From Thermoleophilia bacterium (GTDB lineage Bacteria > Actinomycetota > Thermoleophilia > RBG-16-64-13), in NCBI GenBank assembly GCA_026415615.1, contig JAOAGT010000001.1, forward strand, positions 421,455 through 485,454: 64,000 nt of DNA, written 5' to 3'. Shown piece by piece: positions 7,995 through 40,391 of this stretch. Numbering within the stretch: the first letter of the stretch is position 1; every line of letters starts with the position of its first letter. The notes under the pieces are model-generated. The model was not told where the DNA came from. It saw only the letters and a list, made by a program, of their open reading frames with translations, and ran no database searches. The position numbers and the translations under genes were made by a program.

Positions 7995-8009
7995 ACGGCC
8001 TATCGCCGG

Positions 8010-10061: not shown

Positions 10062-10096
10062 GTTGGGACCTCCTTGGAGAGCGTAAACAACCTACA

Positions 10097-10693: not shown

Positions 10694-12719
10694 CCTGCGC
10701 TTCTAGAGTTGCAAGGTTGTCTAGCAGGCTAGAGCCTCTGGCAGCGCGGGCCCACCGCACCAGCCCCAGTGGATCGACAATGAGGACGACCTGTCCTGCA
10801 CCGGTTTCAGAGGCTCCAGCTATTCCAGGGATGCGTAGCAGTGGATCTGGAGTTGCGTGGACCACAATTTCTTGGGAGCCAAGTACGCGGTCAACAAGCA
10901 AACCTGCCCAGTGTGGATGCGCGCCTACCACTAGTGCGTGTCGCACCTGTGCAGATGCCGGACGAAGCTGGTAGATTTCGCCAAGGTCAAGTAAGGGCAG
11001 GATTGTGTCCCGATGGGAGATCATCTTGGTGCCCTCAAAGTCAACGATGGCTTCTTTCTGAACCTCGACGATCTCGCGCAGCGAAAGAAGCGGCACAGCA
11101 AAGACCTGATCTCCCGCGCGAGCAATCACTGCGTCGACAATTGAAAGCGAGAGAGGAAGTTGAAGAATAAACTCGGTGCCCTTCCCGAGTGTGGTCGCGA
11201 GGGAGAGCTCTCCTCCGAGCTGCTCCACAGTCTCGCGTACTATGGTTAGGCCTACTCCTCTTCCGCCTGCCAGGTCCGCCTCTGTCCTCGTGGAAAAGCC
11301 GCTTGCCGTTAGAATGTCGAGTAGCTGGTCGGCGTCAAGCGGTTCATCGAGTTTTAGAAGACCAGCCTCAGCTGCTCGCCTTCGCACCAACGCTTCGTCA
11401 ATTCCCGCCCCGTCGTCTGCTACTGAGATCACGATGACCTCGCCCATGGCTCTTGCTCGAAGCATCACGGTGGCCTGTTCGGGCTTACCCGCCTTAGCTC
11501 GCTCGCCTGGTGTCTCTATCCCGTGCGCGACAGCATTTCTAACCAGGTGGAGGAGGGGATCCAAAAGGCGTTCAACCACCAGCTTATCTATCTCGGCGTC
11601 GCTACCCTCGGTGATTACGCGGACCAGCTTGTTTTCCTCTCGGGCAAGGTCGTACACAGCAAACTTGAGTCTTTCGAAGATTTCGCCGATGGGAACCATG
11701 CGCGCCCGCATGACTGCTTCGCGCAAAGCTCGTACTTGTCTTTCCAAGGTGGCGGAGTGTTGTTGCAGTGTCTGCCACTCCGCGGCCTCGATCTTGCCCC
11801 TAAGCTGTTTAAGGGAAGAGTCAAGCCTATTCCGTGTAAGCACAAGTTCGCCACACATGCGCATGAGCTCGTCGAGGCGGGAGAGCTCCACCCGTACCAA
11901 GGCAGACGGGGCGACTGGCGAGAACTGCTCTTGTCGGACCGTCCCCTTGCCAGCAGGCGTCGGGCGCTCGGCTTGAGACGAGACCTTGGAAACGTCGCTT
12001 TCTCTGTCGTCGGCCTTACTCCAGGAGAGGCCCAATTCTGCAAGTTCGGGGATTTCGCTCACGTCACCTGATAGACGGACCTTGAAGTGAAAAGCGACTG
12101 CCCCACCCTCTTCGATTATGGGATAGGCGCTCAGAATCTCTCCGTTAGCTTTCAGAGTTTCACGTACGGTCTCTACGTTTACGCCTTGCTGCGCCAACTC
12201 CTGGCTTGGCACAAATTTGAACAGGTAAACTTGGGATTCCGGCTTGCCCTGCTTGTTTTTCGCCTCAGCCTCTGGTTCTTGGATAGAACTCTGCGTTTCC
12301 TCCTCTACGGGTGTCTCCAGCGCCGAAACAACCGAGGCAGCCAGGTCGGCGATGTCAACGCTTTCGCCCCTCTTGCGGGCAGTAAGTGCCTGCTCCAGCA
12401 GCTTAACTGCATCTGTCAAAGCTCCCAACGTCTCCGTCCGGAAGGCTACTTCGCCGCTTCCCAAGCTCCGAAGGTAACTTTCCACTTTGTGGGCTAGATC
12501 CCCCGCCTCTGAGAAGCCCACCATCATTGAGAGGCCCTTAATGGTGTGGAAGCGGCGGAGCAATTCAGAGACAAACGCCTCGGAGGCGGTCGGGGTCGCT
12601 GACTCAGAGCCAGCCAGATCCACAATCATGCGCTTAATGTACGATAAGTGCTCGTCACACTCAGCGAAGTAGTCGTCGAGAAAAGCGGAGAAAATCTCTC
12701 TGTCGTTGTTCTGGTTCAT
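10662..12719 (-). CDS. cheA: Chemotaxis histidine kinase CheA
   Basis: 685 aa. Hpt/P1 domain with the phospho-His box (HTIKGLSMMVGFSEAGDLAHKVES), dimerisation region, HATPase_c (HLVRNAVAHGIE...DDGAGID...GRGVGLTIV) and a C-terminal CheW-like P5 domain. Confidence 0.9.
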   Translation of the reverse strand: MNQNNDREIFSAFLDDYFAECDEHLSYIKRMIVDLAGSESATPTASEAFVSELLRRFHTIKGLSMMVGFSEAGDLAHKVESYLRSLGSGEVAFRTETLGALTDAVKLLEQALTARKRGESVDIADLAASVVSALETPVEEETQSSIQEPEAEAKNKQGKPESQVYLFKFVPSQELAQQGVNVETVRETLKANGEILSAYPIIEEGGAVAFHFKVRLSGDVSEIPELAELGLSWSKADDRESDVSKVSSQAERPTPAGKGTVRQEQFSPVAPSALVRVELSRLDELMRMCGELVLTRNRLDSSLKQLRGKIEAAEWQTLQQHSATLERQVRALREAVMRARMVPIGEIFERLKFAVYDLAREENKLVRVITEGSDAEIDKLVVERLLDPLLHLVRNAVAHGIETPGERAKAGKPEQATVMLRARAMGEVIVISVADDGAGIDEALVRRRAAEAGLLKLDEPLDADQLLDILTASGFSTRTEADLAGGRGVGLTIVRETVEQLGGELSLATTLGKGTEFILQLPLSLSIVDAVIARAGDQVFAVPLLSLREIVEVQKEAIVDFEGTKMISHRDTILPLLDLGEIYQLRPASAQVRHALVVGAHPHWAGLLVDRVLGSQEIVVHATPDPLLRIPGIAGASETGAGQVVLIVDPLGLVRWARAARGSSLLDNLATLEAQGDPGLEVADA

Positions 12720-13625: not shown

Positions 13626-14345
13626 ATGGCAGATAGGCAGAAGGCCATTTACTTAATCCGTCACGGCCGAACCGAAGGTAATGTCTCGGATCGGCTTGCC
13701 GGTTCCACCGATCAGCCTCTTGATTCGTGTGGCCTAAGCCAGGCGGAGGACCTGGCTGTCTGGTTTGCCTGGCGACTAAAGCTCTCTCCGGAAGACAGGG
13801 TCTTGGCAAGTCCCGGTCGGCCATCGGTGCTTTGCCTTTCAAGCCCGCTTATGCGAGCGCGGCAAACTGCAGAAGTCGTTGCTGCTCGGCTTGGTGTGCC
13901 AGTGGTCATCGACGGGGATCTTGCGGAGATGGACTTTGGCGACTGGGAGGGGCGCACCGTCAAAGACATTGTGACGGAAAACCCTGAAGCCTTCGAAGTG
14001 TGGTTGTCACCCGAGGATGACACTTGTTTTCCGGGAGGGGAGACCTTGCGCGCTTTCGAAGAGCGTACACACCGGGCGCTCAGACGAATCATGGCTGTTG
14101 AGGATGAGGTCGTGCTCGTCTTTACCCACGGGGGAGTTGTACGAACAATGGCTTGCGCTCTCCTCGGGCTTGGGCGCGAGAGCATGTGGAAGTTCAAGCT
14201 GGACCCAGCGGCTGTGCTCTACTTCGACGTGTATGGGGAAAGCGCCGTTCTTGCTGGCCTTTGGAATGCCGTGGACCGGTGGGCGCCGCTCTCAGACAGC
14301 CAGACGCGCCCGTACAAGCGAGCTCCTGGTTGTCCGTCCCCCTAG
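13626..14345 (+). CDS. cobC: Alpha-ribazole-5'-phosphate phosphatase CobC (histidine phosphatase family)
   Basis: 239 aa with the phosphoglycerate-mutase-family RHG motif (IYLIRHGRTEGN). First gene after the B12 riboswitch in the cob cluster. Confidence 0.7.
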   Translation: MADRQKAIYLIRHGRTEGNVSDRLAGSTDQPLDSCGLSQAEDLAVWFAWRLKLSPEDRVLASPGRPSVLCLSSPLMRARQTAEVVAARLGVPVVIDGDLAEMDFGDWEGRTVKDIVTENPEAFEVWLSPEDDTCFPGGETLRAFEERTHRALRRIMAVEDEVVLVFTHGGVVRTMACALLGLGRESMWKFKLDPAAVLYFDVYGESAVLAGLWNAVDRWAPLSDSQTRPYKRAPGCPSP

Positions 14346-14374
14346 AGATTTCAACAGGGAAACAGGAGGCTTAA

Positions 14375-15016
14375 GTGGGAGCCATAATCCTTATCACCGG
14401 AGGATGCCGAAGCGGCAAGAGCAGTCTCGCCCAGCATCTTGCGGAGCTAATTGATCCTCCCAGGATCTTTGTGGCGACGGGGATTGCCACAGACGAGGAG
14501 ATGATGGATCGCATCCGTCGCCACCAGGAGGCCCGGGCCGCTCGGGGCTGGAACACGCTGGAAGAGTCAGTGGAGCTGGCTGGTGTTCTTGCGTATCTGC
14601 CGTCAGAATCTCCGGTTGTTGTCGACTGCCTATCTCTCTGGATAAACAATCTGATGTGGGCGGCGCCCACTTCCCGAGTCGAAAATCAGGGGGAATGCGA
14701 AGTGGCCGCCGCAATGTCGACGCTAAGCGAACAAGAGGTGGCGATCAAGTGCGCAGACATAATTGAAGTCTGTCGCTCCCGCAGTGGGCCAACGATTTTT
14801 GTGACCAACGAAGTCGGTATGGGTGTGGTCCCGGGTACAGCGGCGGGGCGGCTGTTCCGAGATCTACTTGGACGTTGCAACCAGGTTATGGCGCAGGAGG
14901 CGGACTTGGTTGTGTTGATGATAAGCGGCCTTCCTTGCGTCATTAAGAGCTTGGCGAGGACTGACGAGCAGACGAAAAACGAAGTGGAGGGGTATTTCCG
15001 TGAGCTTGTTAACTGA
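14375..15016 (+). CDS. cobU: Adenosylcobinamide kinase / adenosylcobinamide-phosphate guanylyltransferase CobU
   Basis: P-loop ILITGGCRSGKSSLAQ and overall CobU/CobP similarity. 213 aa. Confidence 0.8.
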   Translation: MGAIILITGGCRSGKSSLAQHLAELIDPPRIFVATGIATDEEMMDRIRRHQEARAARGWNTLEESVELAGVLAYLPSESPVVVDCLSLWINNLMWAAPTSRVENQGECEVAAAMSTLSEQEVAIKCADIIEVCRSRSGPTIFVTNEVGMGVVPGTAAGRLFRDLLGRCNQVMAQEADLVVLMISGLPCVIKSLARTDEQTKNEVEGYFRELVN

Positions 15017-16058
15017 AACCATTGGTGCTGTTGTTCCTCCGTCCGCAGAGGCCAGGACTGCCGCACGAGCTCGGCTTGAGCAACTGGCCATGCCCTACTG
15101 GGCTCTTGGACGCCTGATGGATCTGGCTGAAGAGCTAGCGGGCATGACGGGCTCCACAAAGCCGCCTGTGGAGCGCAAGACAGTGGTCGTCATGGCCGGC
15201 GACCACGGCGTGGTTGCCGAGGGCGTCAGTGCTTATCCCCAGGAAGTTACCGTCCAGATGGTGGCTAATTTTGTGGCTGGAGGAGCTTCTATCAATGCTC
15301 TTGCCCGTCACGTCGGGGCCAAGGTAGTAGTGGCGGATATGGGAGTGGCGGGCGACCTCGGTCAACTGGGAGACGCCATTATCCATCGCAAGATAGCTCC
15401 CGGAACACAAAACATCGCTGCCGGCCCAGCCATGACTCGAGAGCAAGCCGTTGCCGCTGTTGAGGCCGGTATTGGTATTGCGCGCGATCTGGCGAATGCC
15501 ACTGATGTGTTTGCGACCGGAGAGATGGGGATAGGCAATACCACCCCTAGCAGCGCTATTGTAGCTGCGCTAACCGGCGCTGACCCCGCCGAGGTGACTG
15601 GAAGAGGCACTGGCCTAGATGATCGTCAGCTCCAACACAAGATAGACGTGGTTAGACGTGCACTTGAGGTTAACAAGGTCTCAACCGAAGACGGCATCGA
15701 TGTGCTAGCTAAACTGGGCGGATTTGAGATTGGCGGGATCGCCGGTCTTATCCTGGGAGCGGCGGCGCTGCGCAAACCAGTTGTGATTGATGGCTTTATA
15801 TCTACAGCTGGCGCGCTTATAGCTCAGGCTTTGTGTCCGCTTGCTACCCACTACATGGTTGCCGCTCACCTGAGTGTGGAGCGAGGTCATCGCTTGGCTT
15901 TGGAGAAGTTGGGGAAAAAGCCGCTTCTTGACATGGATCTAAGGCTGGGAGAGGGCACGGGAGCAGCCTTGGCCATGCATTTGGTGGAGGCTGCCGTGCG
16001 TGTTCTTACCGAAGTGGCTACTTTTGAAGAAGCCGCCGTTTCTCGTTCGGCCGGATGA
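15000..16058 (+). CDS. cobT: Nicotinate-nucleotide--dimethylbenzimidazole phosphoribosyltransferase CobT
   Basis: 352 aa, CobT-family sequence (VVMAGDHGV...GEMGIGNTTPSSAIVAAL...GGFEIGGIAG). Confidence 0.85.
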   Translation: MSLLTETIGAVVPPSAEARTAARARLEQLAMPYWALGRLMDLAEELAGMTGSTKPPVERKTVVVMAGDHGVVAEGVSAYPQEVTVQMVANFVAGGASINALARHVGAKVVVADMGVAGDLGQLGDAIIHRKIAPGTQNIAAGPAMTREQAVAAVEAGIGIARDLANATDVFATGEMGIGNTTPSSAIVAALTGADPAEVTGRGTGLDDRQLQHKIDVVRRALEVNKVSTEDGIDVLAKLGGFEIGGIAGLILGAAALRKPVVIDGFISTAGALIAQALCPLATHYMVAAHLSVERGHRLALEKLGKKPLLDMDLRLGEGTGAALAMHLVEAAVRVLTEVATFEEAAVSRSAG

Positions 16059-16828
16059 TGCCTGGATGCGCTGTGTTTAGAGCACTTTTTGCCGCTCTTA
16101 GTTTTCTAACGATCCTGCCTGTCCCAACCTCATGGGGTGGGGATGGGCAGGGCCTTAGACGCAGCGTTTGGTGGTTTCCCGTCGTGGGGGCGTTTCTGGG
16201 TGGAATAGCGGTGGGAGTCTGCTACGGTCTTGACCGAGTACTCCCACCGCTTGCCGGAGGCGCGCTCATTGTCTGTCTGCTGGTTGTGCTCTCAAGGGGG
16301 CTACATCTGGATGGGCTGGCAGACACAGCGGATGGCCTCTTGAGCTGCCAGCCCAGAGACCGGGCCCTGGCCATCATGCGGGACAGCCGCACTGGCGCCA
16401 TGGGCGTGATAGCTGTCGTCTTGGTCTTGCTCCTTAAGGTGGCGTTTCTTGGCTCCCTGACCATAGACGGTGAGCGTCTTGAAGCTGTATTTCTTATGCC
16501 CTTCCTGGGCCGATGCGCCATCTTGGTGGCCATGGGGGCCTTTAAATACGCACGGCAAGAGGAAGGGCTGGCCACTGCGCTAGCGGTGCAGGGCCGCATA
16601 CGCTTGCTTCTTCTGTTGTGGGCGACCGCTGCGAGTGTCGGGGCGGCCTACGGTGTTGCCGGGCTCTCAGGGGTGGTTGCAGCCGTAGCGTGTATTCTGT
16701 TTGCGGGGATTTTTGGGTTGGTGTGTCGCCGCAGGCTGGGCGGGTACACAGGGGACACGCTAGGGGCCACTAGCGAAATTGCCGAGTGCATTCCTCTCCT
16801 AGTCATTGCTCTTTGGCAGGGAGCGTAG
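16055..16828 (+). CDS. cobS: Cobalamin synthase (adenosylcobinamide-GDP ribazoletransferase) CobS
   Basis: 257-aa polytopic membrane protein with CobS-like segments (LSFLTILP...GLHLDGLADTADGL). Position is between cobT and cobD. Confidence 0.8.
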   Translation: MMPGCAVFRALFAALSFLTILPVPTSWGGDGQGLRRSVWWFPVVGAFLGGIAVGVCYGLDRVLPPLAGGALIVCLLVVLSRGLHLDGLADTADGLLSCQPRDRALAIMRDSRTGAMGVIAVVLVLLLKVAFLGSLTIDGERLEAVFLMPFLGRCAILVAMGAFKYARQEEGLATALAVQGRIRLLLLLWATAASVGAAYGVAGLSGVVAAVACILFAGIFGLVCRRRLGGYTGDTLGATSEIAECIPLLVIALWQGA

Positions 16829-16831
16829 ACG

Positions 16832-18037
16832 TTGGTAACCCACGGCGGGAACCTTAGAGAGTTATCCCAGATTGCCGGGTTGCCCCCAGAGGATTTGCTT
16901 GATTTTTCGGCCAACCTTAACCCTTTGGGGCCGCCGGACTGGCTGGCGGAGGTTATCACCGCTCATCTGGATGAGCTAGCCCACTACCCTGATCCGCAGT
17001 GTTCTGACCTGGTCGCCGCGCTTGTCTCTAAGCATGAGGTCCCAGCGGAAAGAATAGTTCCTGCCAACGGCTCCTCTGAGTTGATTGCCTGGCTACCCCG
17101 CGTGTTTGAAGTGGGGACAGCGGTAATACCCGTTCCGTCTTATACCGAGTACGAGGCAGCGTGCAGGGCGGCGGGACTCGAGGTGCGGCGCCTGCTTCTC
17201 GGCGAGAGTCTGAATTTCGTCATGGATTTTCAAAGACTGGCGGGCTCCCTACGGGGAGGAGAGCTGGTGTTCTTGGCACGGCCGAACAACCCCACGGGTC
17301 AGTTTTTCTGCGCCGCGGAGTTCCTGGATCTGGTCTCGGACTTTCCGTCTTGCTGGTTTGTGGTGGACGAAGCTTTTGTTGAGTTCGTTGAGGAGGAGGA
17401 ACAAGAAGAGACAAGAGGAGGGCAGGGATTCACCAAGGAACGCGAGGCGATCATGCGCGCAGATCTGCCCAACGTGGTGGTACTCCGTTCTCTTACCAAG
17501 CTGTATGCCGTACCGGGCCTCAGGTTAGGATTCGCAGTTGCCTCGTCGCACGTGTGCGACGCACTGCGGACGGCCATGCCTCCGTGGTCGGTCAACGTCC
17601 TTGCGCAGGCGGTAGGAGCCAGGGCTGTCCTGGACGACTCGTATATGGCGGTCACCCGCAAGTTTGTCTCGCAAGAACGCAGATGGCTTGCCGAGCGTCT
17701 TGCGGAAATAGATGGTCTCCGTGTGTTTCCAAGCGTTGCCAACTACATCCTGGTAAAGGTTGAAGGCGGTCCAGCAGGGCTCTTGGGTGACGAACTTGCG
17801 CTTCGTCTTCTTCGCCATGGCATCGCCATCAGAACATGTGGCGACTTTGCTGGTCTTGGCGACCAATATTTTCGCGTAGCGGTGCGCACCAGGTCCGAAA
17901 ACGAAAAACTCATTAAGACTCTTGGCGCTCTGCTGGGCTGCCAAAGGCTTGAGGCGCACCATAAGCATAACCAGGCGCACATTGAGCAGGCGCACATTGA
18001 GCAGGCGCACCCTGGGGGCTTACATATTGAGAGTTAA
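16832..18037 (+). CDS. cobD: L-threonine-O-3-phosphate decarboxylase CobD (class I/II aminotransferase fold)
   Basis: TTG start. HGGNLRELSQIAGLPPEDLLDFSANLNPLGPP and an aminotransferase PLP fold (SLTKLYAVPGLRLG). The C-terminus carries a His/Gln-rich HIEQAHIEQAH repeat. Confidence 0.75.
   Translation: MVTHGGNLRELSQIAGLPPEDLLDFSANLNPLGPPDWLAEVITAHLDELAHYPDPQCSDLVAALVSKHEVPAERIVPANGSSELIAWLPRVFEVGTAVIPVPSYTEYEAACRAAGLEVRRLLLGESLNFVMDFQRLAGSLRGGELVFLARPNNPTGQFFCAAEFLDLVSDFPSCWFVVDEAFVEFVEEEEQEETRGGQGFTKEREAIMRADLPNVVVLRSLTKLYAVPGLRLGFAVASSHVCDALRTAMPPWSVNVLAQAVGARAVLDDSYMAVTRKFVSQERRWLAERLAEIDGLRVFPSVANYILVKVEGGPAGLLGDELALRLLRHGIAIRTCGDFAGLGDQYFRVAVRTRSENEKLIKTLGALLGCQRLEAHHKHNQAHIEQAHIEQAHPGGLHIES
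17972..18010 (+). repeat. 15-bp tandem repeat (caggcgcacattgag, about 2.6 copies) at the cobD 3' end
   Basis: Direct reading: caggcgcacattgag caggcgcacattgag caggcgcac. It encodes AHIEQAHIEQAH and produces the spurious RRTLSRRTLSRRTL in the overlapping frame. Confidence 0.8.
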
Positions 18038-18038
18038 C

Positions 18039-19007
18039 GTGGAACTGGAGCTAACGCAGCGTACAAGACTCATCCTCGTCTCCCTGGCAGTGGACGCTCT
18101 TCTTGGTGATCCGCGCTGGTTTCCTCACCCTGCCAAGTTGACTGGTCGGCTTGCTCTACGGCTCGAAGCTCTTACGAGAAAACATATTGCCAACGAGCGG
18201 CTTGCGGGCTTTGCAACTGCAACTGCTGTGATCTTGTCTTCTGGACTGGTTACCTTTGCCTGCACCCGGGCAGCGCGTCTGATTCACCCCCGCCTTGGCC
18301 AAGCCGCTCAGATACTGGTGTTTTGGACAGCTATCGCCCCTCGCGATCTGGCCGATCATGCGCTTGCCGTACATCGAGCTCTTGTTAGAGGAGACCTAGA
18401 TGCGGCAAGGACCTTGGTGGGCAGGATGGTGGGGCGTGATGTGGCGGAGCTTGGTCCACCCGAGGTAGTGCGGGCAGCCGTGGAGAGCGTGGCGGAAAAC
18501 ACCGTGGACGGAGTAACTTCGCCGCTTTTTTACGCGTTTGTGGGCGGGCCGGTGGGCGCGGCGGTGTTTAAGGCCATAAGCACATTGGATTCAACGTTTG
18601 GCTATCGCAACGAGCGGTATCTGAAATTTGGCTGGGCCTCAGCCCGGGCGGACGACATAGCCAACTACATTCCGGCCCGGGGGAGTCTCGGCGCTTTTGT
18701 CCTGGCGGCGGCTGTGTTGCGTCGGCGCGCACGGCGGGCCTTACAGGTAGCTCTGCGCGATGGCTCCAAACACGCAAGTCCAAATTCTGGCCTCGCGGAA
18801 GCAGCTATGGCCGGGGCGCTCGGGGTTCAGCTGGGGGGTCCGCTAAAGCGAGGGGGAGAGACCATACAGCTTCCCACTCTCGGTGATCCAGACCATCCTC
18901 TGGAGCCTGGCCACATAAGACAGGCTGTCGCGCTCATGGCGGCCACTACCGTTGTGTGGACGGCTCTTCTCTGTATGGGGACGCGGGTTCTAGCTCGGCT
19001 TATGTGA
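18039..19007 (+). CDS. cbiB: Adenosylcobinamide-phosphate synthase CbiB (CobD/CbiB membrane family)
   Basis: Membrane protein with LAVDALLGDPRWFPHPAKLTGRL and LDSTFGYRNERYLKFGWASARADD motifs. Start reset to the GTG at 18039, just after the cobD stop; the track ORF from 17922 is an artefact of the overlapping repeat frame. Confidence 0.8.
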   Translation: MELELTQRTRLILVSLAVDALLGDPRWFPHPAKLTGRLALRLEALTRKHIANERLAGFATATAVILSSGLVTFACTRAARLIHPRLGQAAQILVFWTAIAPRDLADHALAVHRALVRGDLDAARTLVGRMVGRDVAELGPPEVVRAAVESVAENTVDGVTSPLFYAFVGGPVGAAVFKAISTLDSTFGYRNERYLKFGWASARADDIANYIPARGSLGAFVLAAAVLRRRARRALQVALRDGSKHASPNSGLAEAAMAGALGVQLGGPLKRGGETIQLPTLGDPDHPLEPGHIRQAVALMAATTVVWTALLCMGTRVLARLM

Positions 19008-19176: not shown

Positions 19177-21039
19177 CTACCTACGGATATTCGCGAAGCT
19201 GGGGATTGACTCCTGCAGCGGAACCGCAGAACTCGGAGTGTTTGGCGTGGAGGTATCGGTTGCGGGGTTAGGCGCCATCATGTCTCTTGACGCAGCGCCG
19301 GCTATTTCCAGATTAGGGATACCAAGCACGTCCAGCACGTTAGTGAGTGGGGCGTTCACTGTATGCTTGGCGGCTTCTTCTACGATCTTGCTCTTTGGCT
19401 CGAAAGCAACAGACGTCCCTACGCTGCGAAGCAGACAAACGTCATTTACATTGTCGCCTACAGCCACTGTTTCGGACGGTCTTAGCCCGGCAGCAGCGGC
19501 CAGATGCAAAAGCACGTTTGCCTTGCAGGAATAGTGCTCTTTGCAGCCGTACTCTGCGATGGTTGCTGGAGCAACCGTGAGCTCTCCGGTTGCGCGCCCG
19601 TGACGGAAATGCATCAGGTGGGCCACGCAAGAGTCAGCAAAAACACGCCGGCGTACAATCTCAGCAGCTACGTGAAAACTGTCGGTGACCACAACCACTC
19701 GGTATCCAGCTTTGCGCAAGGCTACAACAGTTTCGGGAGCGCCGGGTACTAGAGGCATCGAACGCGCCGCTTCTTCGAAGATTTCCTTGTGAACGCCGGC
19801 GAAAAGCGAGGCAATCATTTGGGCTCTTTGCTCATTCGTAAGAGTGTGGTTATCGAGCAACAGGTCAAGCTCTGTGCTTACACCTACGCGTTCGGCAACT
19901 TCAGCCACGTACCGACCGTTCAACAGGACGCCATCCATGTCCAGCAAGGCATGTCGCGCGGGAGCGGTCGTTAGGTCGGCATTCGGAAGCAACGCGGCGC
20001 GGACTCTGCGTTCGGCTTCCTCCATCTCACGCACTGAGTTGATGCTCAACCGTTCGTATCTCCATGCTCGGTCGAGGATCACTCTGGCTACTTGTTTGGC
20101 CATTACGCCCAGCGCCTCAAGAGACTGGCTTTCGTGAACAATCCGCCCAATGTGGACCTCGCATACTGCGGCTCCTTTTGCCACCACCGAGTCGATGAGA
20201 AGTCCAACGTCGACCCCGTAGTCGTTTTCGAAGCGAAGTCCGCGAAAGAGGGAGGTGCGCGCAGCCACGATGCCTCCCAGCGGTTGTTGGAATCGCTCTA
20301 GCTCGGGGAAAAACGCGGAGAGAAGAGGGCGGGCGGTTAGCACTGTGACTCGACCAGCCTCGCGACTGAAGGCGGCCTTCACTAGGTCGGCCTCTCCCGC
20401 CAGGATGGGGTCGGTCATAACTTCGACAATATCCGGCCTGATATCTTCAAGGTCAGCGTCAAGGAACAATATGATTTTGCCCTGGGCTACCCTAACGCCA
20501 TCTTCCATGGAAGCACCCTTGCCCAAGAGGGTGCTCATCATGACACGCGCTCCCGCCTGGGCGGCCATCTCCACGGTGTCGTCAGTGGATCCGTCGTCAA
20601 CTACTATGACTTCTCGCACTCTGGAGCTCTTCTTGACCACACGCACGAGGCGGCCGATCGTTCGAGCTTCGTTGAGGGCTGGAATGATCACGGTTACTGG
20701 AGCCGGGCCAAATTGCGTCCTGCTGTGCAAAAAGATCTCGGTTGGACGAAAATTTTCGCGCAGAGCCGCGGCAAGCAACTCTTTGCCACGGACAGTGGGG
20801 AGCAGGTGGCCCAGGCACGGCCACTCCACGGCTTCTGCGTTAGTCAAGCGATGGGCTGATTCCTCAACGGTTAGGCGTGACCAACTCAGGTGTTCGGCAA
20901 GGTCGTCTAGGGAGACAGCCGTCTGAAACTCTTCGCTGAGTTGAAACAGAAGTTGGAGAAAAGCAATCTCCCGCTCGCCAATCGCAGCTGGCGGGTTGGT
21001 AAAGTCCGAGGGATGGTAGTTGGGATTTCCTTTTGCCAT
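19177..21039 (-). CDS. Three-domain fusion: N-terminal winged-helix-like domain + glucosyl-3-phosphoglycerate-synthase-like retaining glycosyltransferase + HAD-IB (phosphoserine-phosphatase-like) phosphatase
   Basis: The middle region resembles GpgS (VTVIIPALNEARTIGRLV...VIVVDDGSTDDT...ILFLDADL...VLTARPLLSAFFPELERFQQPLGGIVAARTS...YGVDVGLLID). The C-terminal HAD has motif I (LLDMDGVLL) and motifs III/IV (VAVGDNVNDVCLL). The N-terminal roughly 110 aa look like a wHTH. Start placed at the ATG at 21039 (MAKGNPNY); the upstream 48 codons in the track overlap the divergent gene. Confidence 0.65.
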   Translation of the reverse strand: MAKGNPNYHPSDFTNPPAAIGEREIAFLQLLFQLSEEFQTAVSLDDLAEHLSWSRLTVEESAHRLTNAEAVEWPCLGHLLPTVRGKELLAAALRENFRPTEIFLHSRTQFGPAPVTVIIPALNEARTIGRLVRVVKKSSRVREVIVVDDGSTDDTVEMAAQAGARVMMSTLLGKGASMEDGVRVAQGKIILFLDADLEDIRPDIVEVMTDPILAGEADLVKAAFSREAGRVTVLTARPLLSAFFPELERFQQPLGGIVAARTSLFRGLRFENDYGVDVGLLIDSVVAKGAAVCEVHIGRIVHESQSLEALGVMAKQVARVILDRAWRYERLSINSVREMEEAERRVRAALLPNADLTTAPARHALLDMDGVLLNGRYVAEVAERVGVSTELDLLLDNHTLTNEQRAQMIASLFAGVHKEIFEEAARSMPLVPGAPETVVALRKAGYRVVVVTDSFHVAAEIVRRRVFADSCVAHLMHFRHGRATGELTVAPATIAEYGCKEHYSCKANVLLHLAAAAGLRPSETVAVGDNVNDVCLLRSVGTSVAFEPKSKIVEEAAKHTVNAPLTNVLDVLGIPNLEIAGAASRDMMAPNPATDTSTPNTPSSAVPLQESIPSFANIRR

Positions 21040-21142
21040 GTCGCCTCTTCTTCTGCTTTTCTTGTCTGGCGCGTATGGTTTTTCGAAGGGCTTAGACGCT
21101 GGCTGTCGGGCGCAAAGCGTAGGTACTTGGTGTAACAGATGT

Positions 21143-21160
21143 GTAACAAAGAAGTTACAG
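21143..21160. promoter_or_regulatory. Perfect palindrome TGTAAC-N6-GTTACA (candidate operator) in the divergent promoter region
   Basis: tgtaacaaagaagttaca is seen directly, with an extra TGTAACA half-site 12 bp upstream (21131..21137). It lies between the GT-HAD fusion (minus) and the EamA transporter (plus). Confidence 0.4.
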
Positions 21161-21210
21161 AGAGCGCAGTTGAACCTGACCACGATCCAGGTTTGGTTGG
21201 ACCAGCGTCT

Positions 21211-22098
21211 TTGAAGACACGCGTGTTGCCTCTAGTCGCCCTCTTGCTCTTGGCTTTGATCTGGGGTTACTCCTGGGTGGTAATGAAGGTAGCTCTCGAC
21301 TACTGCCCGCCGTTCTTGTTTGCCGCTCTGAGAACCTTTCTGGGAGCGATTGCGTTGTTCGTGGCGCTCATACTGCTCCGTCGACCTCTACGACCACGAG
21401 CGCTTGGTGGCACAGCAGTGCTTGGTCTGCTTCAGACCACCGGATTTGTTGGATTTCTCACCTGGGCTTTGGCTACGGGAGCAGCAGGGAGGACCTCCGT
21501 TCTGACGTATACGATGCCCTTTTGGCTATTGCTCATGGCCAGCGCGCTCTTGGGGGAGAGACTGAGCCGCGCTCAATGGGGCGCGGTCTTGCTGGCTTTT
21601 GTGGGTCTACTTCTCATAGTCTCTCCCTGGAACTTGCACGGGGGAGCAAGCCCTTTTCTTGCGGTTGCTGGTGCAGTCTTTTGGGCGGCTAGCGCAGTGC
21701 AGGCCAAACTTCTCCGTGCCAAGCATCAGCTTGATCTGCTTGCTTTGACTTTCTGGCAAATGCTGGCGGGGGCAATTCCTTTGGCATTGGTAGCGGTACT
21801 CGCAGAACGTGAGTGGCTGGTTTGGAGTGCGACGTTTGCGGTGGCTTTGGCCTATGTGGCGATACTGGGTAACGCCGTGGCGTGGCTCCTCTGGATGTAC
21901 ATACTTGATAGCATGCCCGCGGGAACAGCCGGGCTTGCTACTCTTCTTACCCCAGTAGTTGGCGTTCTTTCTTCATGGTTTCAGTTGGGAGAACGTCCCG
22001 GCGCTGTTGAGGGGATAGGCATGATAGCCATCGTGGGGGCGCTCTTGTGGACGGTGCTTTCCGAACTTACTAGAGGAAGAAAACGGCTGTCACGATAA
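21211..22098 (+). CDS. EamA/DMT-family transporter
   Basis: Ten predicted TM helices and two EamA-like halves (LIWGYSWVVMKVALDY...; ...LWMYILDSMPAGTAG). The start is uncertain: the track's ATG at 21139 lies inside the palindrome, and an in-frame TTG at 21211 or GTG at 21223 is more plausible. Confidence 0.65.
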   Translation: MKTRVLPLVALLLLALIWGYSWVVMKVALDYCPPFLFAALRTFLGAIALFVALILLRRPLRPRALGGTAVLGLLQTTGFVGFLTWALATGAAGRTSVLTYTMPFWLLLMASALLGERLSRAQWGAVLLAFVGLLLIVSPWNLHGGASPFLAVAGAVFWAASAVQAKLLRAKHQLDLLALTFWQMLAGAIPLALVAVLAEREWLVWSATFAVALAYVAILGNAVAWLLWMYILDSMPAGTAGLATLLTPVVGVLSSWFQLGERPGAVEGIGMIAIVGALLWTVLSELTRGRKRLSR

Positions 22099-23407
22099 CA
22101 AAGATGGGGCCAAGGATGCCTACCGAGTAAAGCATGTAGCCAAAAAACGAGGGCATCTTGACCCCGGCTCGCTCGGCGATGGAGCGCACGGCGAAGTTGG
22201 GGGCATTGCCTATATAAGTCATGGCTCCAAACATGACTGCCCCGCAGGAAATGGCTCTTAGGAAATCGGCGGGGGAGAAGCCTAACCCGGGCACAACATG
22301 GGTTGCAGTTAGTGCCCCTACTGTGTGTACACCCACCAAACCTTGGGCAACCGAAGCAAAAGTCAGGTAGGTAGGCGCATTATCCAGGAAGGATGAAAGA
22401 CCTCCGGTAAGCCAGTAAAAATGCCATGGTTTGGTGAGGCCAATGGAGGCTCCATGGGCCTCGAGCAGGGCCAAGGCTGGGATCATGGTGGCGAATATAC
22501 CGGCGAAAAGCACAGCGACTTCCACAATAGGATGCCAGCTGAAATGGTTCGCTGCCCTCGGTCCCTTGGGACCCAGGGTGAGCGATATCACGGCTAGGGC
22601 GACGAGAATTACCTCGCGCAAGAACGGGAAGTGGATCTTTGCGCCTGCGTTGGCGAGGGGGGCCGAGAAGAGCACAGTGACTATAACCAACGCCAGGAGA
22701 ACGAGGTTGATCATGCCTTTGAGTCTCATGGGCACGTAGTCACCCACGTCCATCTGTTTGGCGGGAACCGGCTCCTTGCGGTAGTAGTAGAGCTCAAAAG
22801 CAAGATAGGCGACCAACACTAGGCCTACCACCAACAACCACTCGGCCCAAAGCCCCAAGGTCCAGGAGAAAGGCACTCCCCGCAAGAAGCCTAGAAACAG
22901 GGGCGGATCGCCAAGTGGGGTGAGAAGCCCGCCCACATTGCTTACCGCAAAGATAAAAAAGACCACAGTGTGGCGAGTGTACTTGCGCTCCGAGTTTGCT
23001 CGAAGCAGCGGCCTGATTAGCACCATGGATGCACCCATGGTTCCGATGAAGCTAGCAATTACCGAGCCTAAAGCCAAGAAAGCTAGATTGGTGCTTGGTC
23101 TGGCCACAAGATTTCCTGTCAGATACAGACCTCCGGAAATCGTGTACAGGGAGAACAAAAGGAGAATAAAAGACACGTACTCGGCTGCCGTGTGGCCTGC
23201 CATCTCTAGCCCAAGATGCCCGAAGTCTGCCACGAGATAGATGACCATAGGGGCCCCCAGGACAGCAGCCACTATTGCCTTGTTCCGATTGCGTTCAAAC
23301 CAGTGGGGGCAGGTAAGGGGAAGAACAGCTATCGCCAGCAACATGCAGGCGAAAGGGGCAAGAGTCCAAAGTCCGAGTTGTTGGCCCAGTTCTACGTTGG
23401 CGTTCAA
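22070..23407 (-). CDS. ArsB/NhaD-superfamily permease (putative Na+/H+ antiporter NhaD-type)
   Basis: 445 aa with about 12 TM segments and the ion-transporter-superfamily signature IGNAPNFAV near the C-terminus. Confidence 0.5.
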   Translation of the reverse strand: MNANVELGQQLGLWTLAPFACMLLAIAVLPLTCPHWFERNRNKAIVAAVLGAPMVIYLVADFGHLGLEMAGHTAAEYVSFILLLFSLYTISGGLYLTGNLVARPSTNLAFLALGSVIASFIGTMGASMVLIRPLLRANSERKYTRHTVVFFIFAVSNVGGLLTPLGDPPLFLGFLRGVPFSWTLGLWAEWLLVVGLVLVAYLAFELYYYRKEPVPAKQMDVGDYVPMRLKGMINLVLLALVIVTVLFSAPLANAGAKIHFPFLREVILVALAVISLTLGPKGPRAANHFSWHPIVEVAVLFAGIFATMIPALALLEAHGASIGLTKPWHFYWLTGGLSSFLDNAPTYLTFASVAQGLVGVHTVGALTATHVVPGLGFSPADFLRAISCGAVMFGAMTYIGNAPNFAVRSIAERAGVKMPSFFGYMLYSVGILGPIFVIVTAVFFL

Positions 23408-23608: not shown

Positions 23609-24280
23609 ATGGTGAAGGACGGAAGAGAGGGCGCTCATCCGGGGGAATACCCCTATCCATCTAGCTGGCTGGGCCGGCTTCGCGCACGGGCGGTCAGAAT
23701 CGCGCTAGACATCTGGAACGGGCGTGAAACCGAACCTGAGATGCTAGCAGGCGAGGAGCCGCCTCGCCTTGAGTACAGCCGTTTAGACTCCTGGTACACG
23801 CGATTTACCCGTTGGCTGTCATACCTTGCGGCTCTGTCACTAGGGGCAGTTGCAATTATCTGCTTCGTTGACGTGATCGGGTGGAAATTCTTCGGCTGGA
23901 CCGTGCCGAGTGCGCAATCGCTTATCAAGCATTTGAATCTTGTTTTGGTGTTTCTTGGGGTGGCCTATGTCCAAATGGATAGGGGAAGCATCGGCATTGA
24001 GCTGCTGCAAAACAAGTTCCACCGCGTAGGCAAACTAGTCGTGCGGATGTTTGGTTCCCTGCTTGGCATTGGAGTGTGCAGTTTTGCGGCCATACGGGGC
24101 TGGGCTTATGCGGCTGAGCTGATGAAGGAGCATGCAGTAGCCGAGGGTTTGTGGAGGTTCAAGCTCTGGCCGTTCCAAGTCGTGCTGGTCATCGGCTTTG
24201 CCGCTTTGGCGCTTGCTTTCGTTTTTGCCATAGCTCGTGATCTAACTGATTTTCGCAAGCGACGGGGCAGGTACGCCTAG
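23609..24280 (+). CDS. dctQ: TRAP transporter small permease DctQ
   Basis: Four-TM small subunit immediately upstream of dctM. The N-terminal roughly 45 aa may not be translated; an alternative ATG is at 23741. Confidence 0.65.
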   Translation: MVKDGREGAHPGEYPYPSSWLGRLRARAVRIALDIWNGRETEPEMLAGEEPPRLEYSRLDSWYTRFTRWLSYLAALSLGAVAIICFVDVIGWKFFGWTVPSAQSLIKHLNLVLVFLGVAYVQMDRGSIGIELLQNKFHRVGKLVVRMFGSLLGIGVCSFAAIRGWAYAAELMKEHAVAEGLWRFKLWPFQVVLVIGFAALALAFVFAIARDLTDFRKRRGRYA

Positions 24281-24294
24281 GAGAGGCGGGCAAC

Positions 24295-25611
24295 GTGGAA
24301 TTTCAGGCGATAGTGGGACTGGCTGGGTTTGCTGCGATGCTGGTAATGATTCTTGCCGGCATCCCTATTTTTGTCACGCTGCTCTCGGTGACCTTTGTTG
24401 GCATGTTGATCTTGGAGGGCGGCGATCTAACCATGGTGTTTCAGCAGTTCAAGACTGCCCCCTATGCCCGGGCGGCGGACTATTCCTTTGCCGTGCTGCC
24501 TCTGTTCATGTTGCTCGGGGTTCTTGCGGGTGAAACAGGAGTGGGCAGGAATTCCTATGACGCCATTGCCCGGTGGACAAACCGGATGCCCGGGGGTCTG
24601 CTTGCCGCCACAATCGGCGGGAACGCAGTTTTTGGCGCTGTCAGTGGCATGTCTTTGGCTGCCAACATGGTTTTCGCCAAGATCGCCTTACCCGAGCTAA
24701 CTCGAGCCGGTTACGACAAACGTCTTTCCATGGCCACCATCGTTGCTTCGGGCTGCCTGGACAATCTTATTCCCCCAAGCATGGCCATCATCATCTTCTG
24801 TGTACTTGTTCAGAATCTCTCTCTGGGAAGGGCGCTCATGTGCGGCATAGGGCCGGCGCTCTTGCTTATGGTTCTCTTGTATGGGGTGGTGTTGGTTCAG
24901 TATTGGCTACATCCGGAGCGCGTTCCCCGGGCTGGAGCGGTGCGCTACACGTGGCGCGAGAGGATGGCCTCGCTCAAATTCCTGCTCCCCGTGGCTGCAT
25001 TCTTCGTCTTGGTGATCGGCGGCACCTTCTGGGGCGTGTTCTCAGCTACCGTGGCGGGCGCGATAGGATCAGTGATCTTGATTGTCTATGGGCTCATCCG
25101 CCGGGTGGCTCTTAAGAAGATTCTGCGTGCGATGTGGGAAGCGTGCGTTATGAACGCTGGCATCTTCCCCATAGTTATAGCAGGCACGATGTTTAGCCGC
25201 TTCATTAGTTTGAGTCGACTACCTTTCCATCTGACCGAGTGGTTCCAAAGCCTGAATATGCCAGGGTACGTAGTGTTTTTGATCGTGCTGATCTTTTATG
25301 TCTTCTGCGGCTGCATCATGGATATCGCCTCAGTGATCATTATCACTATTCCTGTGGTTTTCCCGCTCCTGGTGGATGGTTTCGGGTTTGATCCGTACAT
25401 GCTGGTTATTGTTCTTGTGTTTGTAGGCGAGATGGCCGGTCTAACGCCGCCAATTGGGATGAACGTGTTCGCGACGGCCAGTGCGCTTAAAGTAGATCCT
25501 GGCGAGATATTCCGCGGAGTGTGGCCGTTTGTAGCGGTGGAGTTCGCGACTGCTCTTGTGATTGGAGCATTTCCTGTGTTAGTGACGTGGCTTCCAGATC
25601 TACTAGGATAG
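24295..25611 (+). CDS. dctM: TRAP transporter large permease DctM
   Basis: 438-aa polytopic membrane protein of the DctM family. GTG start preceded by AGGAGAGG. Confidence 0.85.
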   Translation: MEFQAIVGLAGFAAMLVMILAGIPIFVTLLSVTFVGMLILEGGDLTMVFQQFKTAPYARAADYSFAVLPLFMLLGVLAGETGVGRNSYDAIARWTNRMPGGLLAATIGGNAVFGAVSGMSLAANMVFAKIALPELTRAGYDKRLSMATIVASGCLDNLIPPSMAIIIFCVLVQNLSLGRALMCGIGPALLLMVLLYGVVLVQYWLHPERVPRAGAVRYTWRERMASLKFLLPVAAFFVLVIGGTFWGVFSATVAGAIGSVILIVYGLIRRVALKKILRAMWEACVMNAGIFPIVIAGTMFSRFISLSRLPFHLTEWFQSLNMPGYVVFLIVLIFYVFCGCIMDIASVIIITIPVVFPLLVDGFGFDPYMLVIVLVFVGEMAGLTPPIGMNVFATASALKVDPGEIFRGVWPFVAVEFATALVIGAFPVLVTWLPDLLG

Positions 25612-25729: not shown

Positions 25730-26878
25730 ATGAAGAAGCTATGGATATTAGGTCTGGCTATACTTGTGGCGCTGGCCGTGGGGCTTGTCGCTTGCGGCGA
25801 GGAAGAGCAAACAACCACGACGGCAGCTCCCACCACGGCTACTACTCAGGCTGCGAGCACCACGACCAGCACGGCTGCTCCTGAGACTACAACTACGTCA
25901 GTGGCCAAGGAACCCATTGTCTTCAAGATGGCTAGCACTTTCCAAGAGACCGAAACCGGCGGGTTGATGGCCCAACATTTCATTGATCTTATCCACGAGC
26001 GGACCCAGGGAGCGGTAAAGATCGAGCTTTACCCGGGAGGGACGCTCGGTGGGCCACCCGAAGTCCTTGGTCTGCTTGAGTCTGGCGCAGCCGACATCGC
26101 TCCATTTGGCCATCCGGCGGCTGCCGCATCTTTGCCTCTGCTTAACTTCCCTATGTGGGCGCCTGGGGATCAGCAGACCGCCATCGCCTACTTCAATCAC
26201 ATGGTGTTTGAGAATCCCGACACTGCTCCTCTAATCCAGGCTGAGGCGGAGGCGCACAACATCAAGTATCTGGGCTTCAACGCGGGTGGCTCTAATGTGT
26301 TTGTCTCCAAGGTGCCCTTCACCAAGCTGGCCGACCTCAAGGGAAAGAAGTGCGCCGTAGGTGGGGCCATCCCGGCGTTCCAGGCCATCGGGCTCGAACC
26401 GGTTGAATCTTTCCCACCCGACACGTACGAGAACTTGTCGCGCGGCATTGCCGACTGTGCACAGATGGGCTTCTCACCGACTGTCCAGCTTAAGTGGTAC
26501 GAAGTGGCAAAGTACTACATGTTTGACGGCACTTATGCCGCTGGGAACCCCTGGACCGTCAATTTGAAGAGCTGGGCCAAGCTAAGCCCCGAGCTTCAGC
26601 AGGTATTTCTGGACGTAGCCAAAGAAATGGAGGCTTGGAGTACTGAGCTCACGTTAAACGAAGAGCAGAAGGCTCTCGAAACGCTCAAAGCGGCTGGCGT
26701 AACCGTGGGCACTTTGAGCGCGGAAGACCAGAAACTGTGGTGGGATGCACTGTTCAAGGCGTGCGCCGACTCGCAGTATAAACTGGCCAAGGATGGGGGA
26801 TTTGCTGATCAGATGGTCACCGTGCTAAAAGCTGCGGCGGCCTTCACAAAGACTACCTGGGAACCGCCAGCGCAGTGA
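25730..26878 (+). CDS. dctP: TRAP transporter substrate-binding lipoprotein DctP
   Basis: Lipoprotein signal with lipobox LVAC, then the Thr-rich linker GEEEQTTTTAAPTTATTQAASTTTSTAAPETTTTS, then a DctP-family fold. Confidence 0.8.
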   Translation: MKKLWILGLAILVALAVGLVACGEEEQTTTTAAPTTATTQAASTTTSTAAPETTTTSVAKEPIVFKMASTFQETETGGLMAQHFIDLIHERTQGAVKIELYPGGTLGGPPEVLGLLESGAADIAPFGHPAAAASLPLLNFPMWAPGDQQTAIAYFNHMVFENPDTAPLIQAEAEAHNIKYLGFNAGGSNVFVSKVPFTKLADLKGKKCAVGGAIPAFQAIGLEPVESFPPDTYENLSRGIADCAQMGFSPTVQLKWYEVAKYYMFDGTYAAGNPWTVNLKSWAKLSPELQQVFLDVAKEMEAWSTELTLNEEQKALETLKAAGVTVGTLSAEDQKLWWDALFKACADSQYKLAKDGGFADQMVTVLKAAAAFTKTTWEPPAQ

Positions 26879-39933: not shown

Positions 39934-40332
39934 CTACCGCGCAATCATGACGGGGACCTTCGCGTATCTGAGGACTCGCTCCGAGGTCGAACCGAGCAGC
40001 AGATTCGCAAAAGTACCGCGGCCGCGGCTTCCCATGAGAATCAAATCGGCGTGGTGCTCTTCGGCGGCATCAAGAATCCCCTGTGCGGGCAATGCATCGG
40101 GTACCGCTACGAGAGTAGGGATGCCCAGCTTGGCAAGTCTGTCAACCAACGGATTTACCAATCGTCTTACTTCGCTTGGCTTTGAGGTCTGGGGCATGTG
40201 GCCAAAAGCGTGGCAGACGATGATGGTTGAGTCGAATTTCTCGGCCAGTGTGATAGCAAGAGCCGCAGCCTTTTCAGAGTCCTCCGACCCGTCGTATGCA
40301 AGCAGGATCCTACGGAAACCTTTTTCTTCCAT
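39934..40332 (-). CDS. Universal stress protein (UspA family)
   Basis: 132 aa, [15 protein letters not shown]...MGSRGRG...GSTSERV. Confidence 0.8.
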
Positions 40333-40391
40333 CGCCCCTCCAGCATGCCGAAACAGACATGCTCACTATAGCAGCAAGGTATACTTCCTAC

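Follow-up and report, generated by a model that had tools for sequence, protein, structure and literature searches.

Glucosylglycerate and mannosylglycerate are stress solutes, and glucosylglycerate also primes the methylglucose lipopolysaccharide of mycobacteria. To our knowledge only a few enzyme types serve their synthesis, and MgsD of Dehalococcoides is reportedly an MPGS/MPGP fusion. The enzyme-repressor 'trigger enzymes' BirA, PutA and NadR carry a DNA-binding domain on a metabolic enzyme. Two kinds of GpgP phosphatase are known, the HAD-IIB MpgP/GpgP type and the histidine phosphatase of mycobacteria, and a fused GG-phosphate phosphatase/synthase is reported from Marinobacter (PMC10873239). 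Here we describe a gene in a 64,000-nucleotide (64-kb) stretch of a Thermoleophilia bacterium contig (JAOAGT010000001.1, assembly GCA_026415615.1, positions 421,455 to 485,454), hereafter the window, whose product joins an N-terminal winged helix-turn-helix (wHTH) domain, a GT81-like glycosyltransferase (GT) and a HAD-IB phosphatase. With somewhat more confidence than doubt, we propose that this three-domain protein makes a hexosyl-glycerate solute within one polypeptide, and that its wHTH regulates the gene that encodes it.

The open reading frame (ORF) extends on the minus strand from 19177 to 21183, and the gene itself occupies 19177-21039, stop codon included, encoding 620 aa. The sequence GAAGAGG-N4 lies directly 5′ of the ATG at 21039, the start chosen in the initial annotation, and a homologue with 90% identity and the same length of 620 aa (P0001) begins with the same residues as the window protein; because the Shine-Dalgarno sequence and the start of P0001 agree, we accept this start, and a 668-aa version beginning at the GTG at 21183 was dropped for the same reasons. 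An AlphaFold2 model of the whole protein was made with 117 homologues as input, the same 117-sequence alignment being used for the family conservation described below. It has a predicted local distance difference test score (pLDDT) of 87.4 and a predicted TM-score (pTM) of 0.80. Short linkers connect its three folded domains, and a disordered C-terminal tail comes last, which falls below pLDDT 50 from residue 586 and is not conserved in the family alignment. The three domains are confidently modelled, in agreement with the tri-domain fusion initially annotated, and domain profile searches returned matches to Glycos_transf_2, the GpgS model NF010496, HAD and TIGR01488. The model contains no membrane segments, and the protein it depicts is most likely soluble.

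The glycosyltransferase domain matches Pfam Glycos_transf_2 at aa 116-237 (E=3e-21), and the GpgS model NF010496 is its top NCBIfam match (196 bits, E=7e-58, aa 113-334). Sequence searching of the PDB places mycobacterial GpgS first (E~5e-30, 108 bits) and Rubrobacter MpgS second (6e-25, 91 bits), with Dol-P-Man synthase, a polyprenol-phosphate GT2 enzyme, at E~5e-5 only, which puts the domain with the GT81 GpgS/MpgS enzymes, in line with the GpgS-like family initially annotated. The fold comparison has the same order: Foldseek superimposes the modelled domain on Mycobacterium tuberculosis (Mtb) GpgS (5jqx/4y6n) with a root-mean-square deviation (rmsd) of 1.6-1.7 Å over 227 columns and 38-39% identity, and its second match is Rubrobacter MpgS at 32% identity. 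Mtb GpgS and the dual-specificity Rubrobacter MpgS/GpgS are themselves 37% identical with an rmsd of 1.7 Å, a distance equal to that between the window domain and Mtb GpgS.

Because the chain numbering of 3e25 is the native Mtb numbering, residues can be mapped exactly. The DxD motif D194-A-D196 corresponds to Mtb D134-S-D136 and the metal-binding His H302 to Mtb H258, and the donor pocket is kept, with Mtb K114, D134, D136, L209, Y229 and M269 found as K174, D194, D196, L254, Y274 and M313 and with a conservative change of E232 to D277. These pocket positions (K174, D194, L254, Y274, D277, M313) are invariant or nearly so in the 117 sequences. In Mtb GpgS the glycerate carboxylate is contacted by V186 through its backbone N and by T187 through its side chain; the equivalent site in the window protein is G229-R230-V231-T232 (GRVT), of which T232 is invariant in the 117 sequences, and the basic residues flanking the acceptor site, R226 (Mtb R167) and R230 (Mtb R185), are nearly invariant. 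By its sequence, then, the domain is a GT81-type enzyme, and its acceptor is almost certainly a glycerate-like alpha-hydroxy acid.

The phosphatase domain matches Pfam HAD at aa 364-538 (E=4.5e-16) and passes the HAD-IB model TIGR01488 (46.4 against a cut-off of 45). HAD motifs I-IV (DMDG, TDS, K506 and GDxxxD) are all intact, with catalytic positions D367/D369, S454, K506 and D529/D533, and the domain is predicted from these to be catalytically intact. It matches the phosphoserine phosphatase (PSP) of M. jannaschii, MjPSP (1f5s), with E=9e-17, and its C1-capped model matches the folds of 1f5s and of H. pylori SerB (3m1y) with target TM-scores of 0.85-0.90, so that the PSP-like HAD-IB assignment of the initial annotation holds. 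SerB models are the best-named HAD matches, and TIGR00338 scores 86 bits, under its cut-off of 144. Phosphoserine is held in MjPSP by Glu20, at its amino group, and by Arg56, at its carboxylate (PMC6321591), and mycobacterial SerB2 retains the equivalents of both. In the window protein Glu20 is replaced by Arg376, which is nearly invariant in the family, and Arg56 by the unconserved Ile409, with an invariant Arg405 one helical turn ahead of it. Because both phosphoserine-specific residues are replaced and the SerB cut-off is missed, the domain is not a true SerB; the substitution of Arg376 for Glu20 and the presence of Arg405 would instead fit an anionic, carboxylate-bearing phosphoester, and this acidic-to-basic switch is consistent with a substrate such as glycosyl-3-phosphoglycerate.

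With regard to the HAD-IIB MpgP/GpgP type, Pfam Hydrolase_3 matches only aa 506-561, the last 56 residues, and the MPGP model is not among the top NCBIfam matches of the window protein. Since the domain is neither of the two known GpgP types, it would represent a third, independent type if its function is confirmed. We also note an insert of about nine residues, absent from MjPSP, that contains an invariant C499-x2-H502-x2-C505 (window 19528-19548) just before the motif III Lys506, together with a nearly invariant C535 after motif IV. The insert may form a metal-binding or structural site, and it resembles the Cys-rich motif of the PHOSPHO1/PS2-type HAD-IB phosphatases; the Pfam Put_Phosphatase model scores 30.0 on the window protein, against a cut-off of 27.

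The N-terminal domain has the H-H-H-beta-beta-H order of a winged helix (H22-38, H44-51, H55-67, E71-75, E78-81, H83-94 in the AlphaFold2 model), and a disordered linker connects it to the GT domain; when modelled alone, residues 21-90 have a pLDDT of 95-98. A profile of 23 such N-terminal domains compared with the PDB finds 5zr4 first (E=2.8e-4) and then many DtxR/IdeR proteins aligned over the whole wHTH, and Foldseek likewise ranks MntR/IdeR/DtxR best (rmsd ~2.5 Å over 72 columns), with ArsR/SmtB and MarR lower. Pfam PF01325 (Fe_dep_repress) reaches 12.8 bits on the window protein against a cut-off of 26, with weak matches in six of the 23 members. The winged-helix-like domain of the initial annotation is borne out, and as modelled it is a genuine winged helix, probably of the DtxR/MntR type. 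Its core is acidic in the window protein (net charge -7), and an interim view that such a domain does not bind DNA was downgraded once the repeat array described below had been found.

A word-indexed search had suggested that this wHTH is exclusive to the GT-HAD enzyme, but this was ruled out by an exhaustive HMMER search of 1.84 billion representatives, which gave 333 matches, including stand-alone proteins and N-terminal modules of other proteins. The closest of the 333 are fragments of the fusion, and the more distant are stand-alone proteins of 90-110 aa or single or tandem N-terminal modules; two of the stand-alone genes were examined and have no GT-HAD gene nearby. Distant relatives (P0145, P0147, P0150, P0165, P0167 and P0174) carry one to three tandem copies at their N-termini. 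Some of the tandem proteins have a weakly Nuc_deoxyrib_tr-like C-terminal region, others have a conserved 'PEQPTEHFP' segment, and in one the C-terminal region looks nucleotide-cyclase-like by eye, without a Pfam match. Judged by their sequences, we regard these distant relatives as an undescribed modular wHTH family.

Regulation by this domain is suggested by a phased repeat array upstream of the gene. Alignment of the upstream regions of the window and of two syntenic loci, L085 (90% protein identity) and L086 (74%), reveals a block that is kept in all three while its flanks have diverged. In the window it reads TCAGGT-N15-GTAAC-N6-GTTAC-N6-GTTAC, with an 11-nt period, 92-140 nt upstream of the ATG. 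Scanning the intergenic region automatically for palindromes and promoters had found nothing, and the array surfaced only through the cross-genome alignment. GTTACA occurs 12 times in the window, three of them in the array, and the composite array patterns are unique in the window, where 0.00-0.04 occurrences are expected by chance. In the distant three-domain genes at L002 and L088 the upstream element takes the form TCAGGT-N5-TCAGG-N4/5-GTTAC-N6-GTTAC, again with a period of about 11 nt, and L001 has a degenerate form.

The pattern GTTAC-N6-GTTAC is present in seven of 90 loci (~1.35 Mb), and every match lies upstream of a wHTH-first gene. One of the arrays (L089) precedes a stand-alone wHTH gene, encoding P0138, with no enzyme nearby. 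A metagenome scan for further wHTH loci gave two loci, and in three lineages fetched after the hypothesis had been formed (L091, L093/94 and L095/96) the array is in the expected place in all. In the final tally 12 of 96 loci, from seven independent lineages, have it upstream of a wHTH-first gene, always on the coding strand and 90-135 nt before the ATG; it is found in none of about 80 two-domain loci, those of Actinomycetota (L005-L007) included. Because the array tracks the wHTH in this way, autoregulation is supported, and the possibility of self-regulation raised in the initial annotation gains a putative operator. On sequence grounds the array is most simply read as the operator of the wHTH, in which case the three-domain proteins would autoregulate. 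An operator-like element in the gene's own promoter that tracks a DNA-binding-type domain, as looked for in trigger-enzyme fusions, is therefore present here.

The first ATG of the divergent EamA ORF (21139-21141) lies inside the array and is CAC in L086 (~5826); since it is both within the array and not conserved, the true start of the EamA gene is probably downstream of 21139, and the 319-aa version annotated for it is probably too long at its N-terminus. Several three-domain genes of the main clade also have a hairpin, GACGG-loop-CCGTC with differing loops, just 5′ of the conserved GAAAGGTGGAGTG ATG region (L001 ~3500-3545, L088 ~7950-7995, L091 ~690-740). This hairpin is missing from the window clade, and its position before the ribosome-binding region suggests that it may be a translational control element.

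The enzyme family itself is large. A homologue search of 5.8 billion proteins gave 1174 matches below 1e-5, and the best 120 of these are all GT+HAD fusions, 50-65% identical and mostly of 460-500 aa. Family loci come from Verrucomicrobiota, Planctomycetota (including Brocadiaceae), Acidobacteriota, Actinomycetota, Bacteroidota, the Candidate Phyla Radiation (CPR) and DPANN, and their database labels are inconsistent ('glucosyl-3-phosphoglycerate synthase', 'phosphoserine phosphatase', 'HAD-IB family phosphatase', 'glycosyltransferase'). The fusion of GT and HAD domains is therefore widespread rather than unusual, and because the phosphatase and GT are obligately fused in more than 1000 homologues, a phosphorylated intermediate is implied. 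The wHTH addition does prove unusual: an N-terminal extension is present in 26 of the 117 top matches (~1/5), and in a quick neighbour-joining tree the three-domain forms make up 13 pure sub-clades interleaved with two-domain forms. A literature search found no publication on a fused gpgS-phosphatase. The GT-HAD fusion is already automatically annotated in databases, and the distinctive feature here is the wHTH with its conserved repeat array.

Coordinates of the gene, its domains and control elements, and the neighbouring genes in the window
Feature	Position	Strand	Evidence
Whole gene, wHTH + GT81-like + HAD-IB	19177..21039	-	ORF, Shine-Dalgarno sequence, P0001, Pfam/NCBIfam/PDB/AlphaFold2
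N-terminal DtxR/MntR-type wHTH, aa ~20-96	20752..20982	-	profile vs PDB, AlphaFold2, Foldseek
GT-A glycosyltransferase, GT81 GpgS/MpgS-like, aa 113-334	20038..20703	-	NF010496, PDB, Foldseek, residue mapping
HAD-IB phosphatase, PSP-like fold, not SerB, aa 362-572	19324..19956	-	TIGR01488, MjPSP 1f5s alignment, fold
Pro/Ser/Thr-rich C-terminal tail, aa 573-620, and stop codon	19177..19323	-	AlphaFold2, family alignment
Shine-Dalgarno GAAGAGG, 4 nt 5′ of ATG 21039	21044..21050	-	sequence
Phased repeat array, candidate operator, divergent promoter region	21132..21179	-	alignment with L085, L086
EamA/DMT-family transporter, divergent	21139..22098	+	Pfam EamA E=1.4e-42
CitMHS_2 (IT-superfamily) permease	22070..23407	-	PF16980 E=4e-151
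TRAP transporter dctQ	23609-24280	+	Pfam, NCBIfam
TRAP transporter dctM	24295-25611	+	Pfam, NCBIfam
TRAP transporter dctP	25730-26878	+	Pfam, NCBIfam

The neighbouring genes are rich in transporters. The window clade has a conserved block of TRAP, CitMHS_2, EamA and fusion genes, with the synteny of fusion and EamA genes kept in L085 and L086, and in L001 a TRAP operon lies 3′ of the fusion gene. The uncharacterised CitMHS_2 permease recurs beside the fusion in distant lineages more often than any other neighbour, being divergent or adjacent in L004 (6116-7723), L007 and L079, and in L088 it begins 7 nt after the fusion gene on the same strand (9850-11184), forming an apparent operon. We found no curated name for this permease, which might carry the product, glycerate or an ion. 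When the neighbours were clustered in 85 loci there was no conserved operon partner, no Pfam family being present in more than three of 127 adjacent genes, but membrane proteins for ions and osmolytes recur close to the gene, where 14 of 174 adjacent ORFs encode one, compared with 11 of 829 ORFs at greater distance (odds ratio 6.5, p=1e-5). Six types were counted, namely CitMHS_2, Na_H_antiport_3, MscS, CLC and two Na/H exchanger types; since this choice was made post hoc, only the decay with distance is informative. These transporter neighbours suit a role in osmotic or ionic homeostasis, without proving such a role.

In five loci of Verrucomicrobiota (L008, L014, L022, L030 and L044) a conserved protein of about 129 aa with no Pfam match adjoins the two-domain GT-HAD gene. 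It appeared wHTH-like by eye, and its kinship with the fused wHTH was rejected on an hhalign probability of 0.2%. Elsewhere in the window, a cobalamin nucleotide-loop cluster (13626-19007, plus strand) is convergent with the fusion gene and encodes a CobC-like protein, CobU, CobT, CobS, a CobD-type aminotransferase and CbiB; the CobC-like histidine phosphatase shares its superfamily with mycobacterial GpgP and scores 139 bits on the alpha-ribazole phosphatase model, and by context and score it is CobC. There is also a TrkH-type K+ uptake protein (38482-39897, minus strand) and an alpha-glucan phosphorylase (55449-58133, plus strand), which could bear on osmotic adjustment and on how glucose-1-phosphate, and through it nucleoside diphosphate (NDP)-glucose, is supplied. 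The window further contains a GAF-SpoIIE (PP2C) phosphatase (31307-33553, minus strand), as well as an ORF (40296-41561, plus strand) in which a QueF-type preQ1 synthase (aa 53-161) is followed by a QueC 7-cyano-7-deazaguanine synthase (aa 207-403), joining two consecutive steps of the queuosine pathway.

Taken together, we envisage that the GT81-type domain, acting as a retaining enzyme, would use an NDP-sugar to place glucose (or, less likely, mannose) on the 2-OH of 3-phosphoglycerate, and that the PSP-fold HAD-IB domain would then strip the 3-phosphate to give glucosylglycerate or mannosylglycerate. The wHTH would bind the TCAGG/GTTAC array ~90-140 nt upstream of its own start, so that the enzyme regulates its own gene, and in the window this control probably extends to the divergently transcribed EamA gene. 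From the comparisons above we infer the substrates and product, the binding of DNA and the osmotic or ionic role. A further step, which we put forward tentatively and with more doubt than confidence, is that the protein is a one-polypeptide device to 'sense, synthesise, regulate', with its HAD-IB domain a third independently evolved GpgP that is widespread, including in CPR and DPANN. In such a device, 3-phosphoglycerate, the NDP-sugar or the product bound in the catalytic domains would alter the binding of the wHTH to the array, and solute synthesis would feed back on the gene itself and on divergent transporter genes.

Several observations weigh against the proposed chemistry, beginning with the fact that the NF010496 score of 196 bits is under the equivalog cut-off of 262. 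The 14-residue beta6-alpha6 loop (Mtb 169-182) is deleted in the window GT, and Mtb R256, R259, N260 and R261 are replaced by I, E, S and Q. In Mtb GpgS both segments move upon ligand binding and contact nucleotide phosphates, R261 contacts the phosphates of uridine diphosphate, and the loop, which the structure paper suggests touches the rest of the acceptor, is thought to close over the 3-phosphate; acceptor and nucleotide recognition must therefore differ from the studied GpgS. The description of the GT region in the initial annotation as matching GpgS motif-for-motif was thus too strong: IPALNE, DDGSTDDT, LDADL, PLLSAFFPEL and GVDVGLLID are all in the translation, but with the loop deleted, the R256/R259/N260/R261 residues replaced and the equivalog score not reached, the domain is not, to judge from its sequence, a strict equivalog. 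Nor do the neighbours include a recurring glucosylglycerate-specific partner (hydrolase, phosphorylase or MggA/B), and the presence of GT-HAD genes at 39-41% identity in DPANN (Micrarchaeota, 'ainarchaeum') and CPR (Peribacteria, Gracilibacteria) genomes (L068, L069, L072, L077 and L083) is unexpected for a compatible-solute pathway, given that these genomes are reduced, and may point to a more basic function or to horizontal transfer. The departures in the GT, the small C1-cap PSP fold with its family-specific Cys/His insert and the CPR and DPANN occurrences would all suit an order other than GpgS-then-GpgP, in which the HAD domain supplies the acceptor (for example D-glycerate from phosphoglycerate), or the GT uses another alpha-hydroxy-acid phosphate to give a solute or precursor so far undescribed. 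We think this improbable, since the GRVT carboxylate site and its neighbouring Arg residues are conserved and every known two-step solute pathway runs from synthase to phosphatase (PMC10873239). A one-polypeptide mannosylglycerate synthase taking guanosine diphosphate mannose, a GT81 analogue of the GT55 MPGS/MPGP fusion, is rather unlikely. In its favour, Rubrobacter MpgS, which accepts both sugars, is second-best in sequence and fold, E232 is Asp as in the mannosylglycerate synthase MgS, and the PLSGE motif, whose Ser has been linked to discrimination against mannose, reads PLGGI. GpgS is nevertheless closer than MpgS by both bit score and identity, and the bona fide GpgS proteins of M. avium and M. 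hassiacum also have Gly here (PLGGE), so that this Gly is not diagnostic of the sugar; glucose and mannose are not separable from the sequence, and the glucosylglycerate initially annotated stands as the likelier of the two products. Finally, it is extremely improbable that the protein simply joins a polyprenol-phosphate GT2 enzyme to a true SerB. There are weak GT2 matches to AglJ, Dol-P-hexose transferases and ArnC, and SerB models lead the named HAD matches, but no polyprenol GT exceeds 77 bits, PDB E-values are ~1e-30 for GpgS against 5e-5, the model lacks membrane segments, and the SerB score together with the lost Glu20 and Arg56 equivalents, at the very positions that would distinguish the genuine SerB considered in the initial annotation, refutes that identity.

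The regulatory half of the proposal meets its own difficulties. The wHTH has a net charge of -2 to -8 in 22 of the 23 members, Asp or Glu stands in helix 3 where the aligned IdeR has SGPTVSQTVARM, Pfam finds no DtxR dimerisation/metal-binding domain (Fe_dep_repr_C) in the window protein, and the array consists of direct repeats while DtxR-family operators are palindromes. It is accordingly possible, though we incline against it, that the wHTH does not bind DNA and is a degenerate domain serving oligomerisation, protein contacts or ligand sensing, the array then being a promoter, an RNA leader or the site of another regulator, co-inherited with the wHTH segment. The acidic core and presumed recognition helix, the missing dimerisation domain, the sub-threshold Fe_dep_repress score and the tandem N-terminal copies of related modules in other multidomain proteins would all be accommodated by this explanation, and direct repeats without a palindrome are what OmpR/PhoB-type proteins read. 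The strict co-occurrence of array and wHTH argues the other way, extending as it does over seven lineages with diverged flanks and to one stand-alone wHTH, as does the absence of the array from the related Actinomycetota two-domain genes and from the rest of the window; an Rfam search of the upstream region, moreover, gave no match.

If the proposed synthesis and autoregulation are correct, a large family of over 1000 so far uncharacterised sequences, those of anammox Planctomycetota included, would gain a function, and a third, convergent type of GpgP phosphatase would be added. A solute of commercial interest would become accessible by a compact route with a single gene, and the wHTH subclade would be a new example of an enzyme acting as its own transcription factor, with a defined candidate operator.

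The nearest described counterpart of the GT domain is Mtb GpgS (Rv1208, PDB 3E25/4Y6N), which has the same GT-A fold, DxD motif, metal-binding His, donor pocket and GRVT site and the same predicted reaction, but the window enzyme scores below the equivalog level, has no loop 169-182 and has R256/R259/N260/R261 replaced. Mycobacterial GpgS is also an enzyme without a DNA-binding-type domain, and its partner phosphatase GpgP (Rv2419c) is a separate protein of the histidine-phosphatase family, whereas that of the window protein is a fused HAD-IB domain. Rubrobacter xylanophilus MpgS/GpgS (PDB 3F1Y) belongs to the same GT81 family and, like the window protein, comes from a deep-branching actinobacterium; it illustrates that GT81 enzymes at such divergence can take mannose or glucose donors, but it is stand-alone, is about 24 residues longer over the aligned region and has neither a fused phosphatase nor a wHTH. 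The PSPs (M. jannaschii 1F5S; SerB) share with the phosphatase domain their fold, the four HAD motifs, the nucleophile Asp and the motif III Lys, and differ in that the window domain has Arg and Ile in place of Glu20 and Arg56, contains the C-x2-H-x2-C insert and falls below the SerB cut-off. The HAD-type GpgP/MpgP enzymes, the 'DDDD' MpgP homologues of Persephonella, Methanococcoides and Thermus, have the superfamily and the proposed function in common with it but represent another HAD subfamily, the window domain being a C1-cap HAD-IB of PSP fold.

MgsD of Dehalococcoides and the Marinobacter fusion resemble the window protein in placing the GT and phosphatase of a two-step solute pathway in one polypeptide, but they use other catalytic families (GT55 or GT20 with HAD-II phosphatases) and are not known to carry a winged helix. 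With DtxR, IdeR and MntR the window protein shares the wHTH fold and its signature, the GH-x-x-LT-x-x-G wing for example resembling RHLELTKAG of IdeR; it differs from them in having no dimerisation/metal domain, in its acidic helix 3 and in its fusion to enzymes, and its candidate operator is a direct-repeat array where theirs are palindromic. The trigger enzymes BirA, PutA and NadR, finally, offer the closest parallel for the proposed regulation, since there too a DNA-binding-type domain is carried on an enzyme, as in the window protein with its candidate operator in its own promoter; their DNA-binding fold and their enzymes are others, and for the window protein both DNA binding and its control by ligands are putative.

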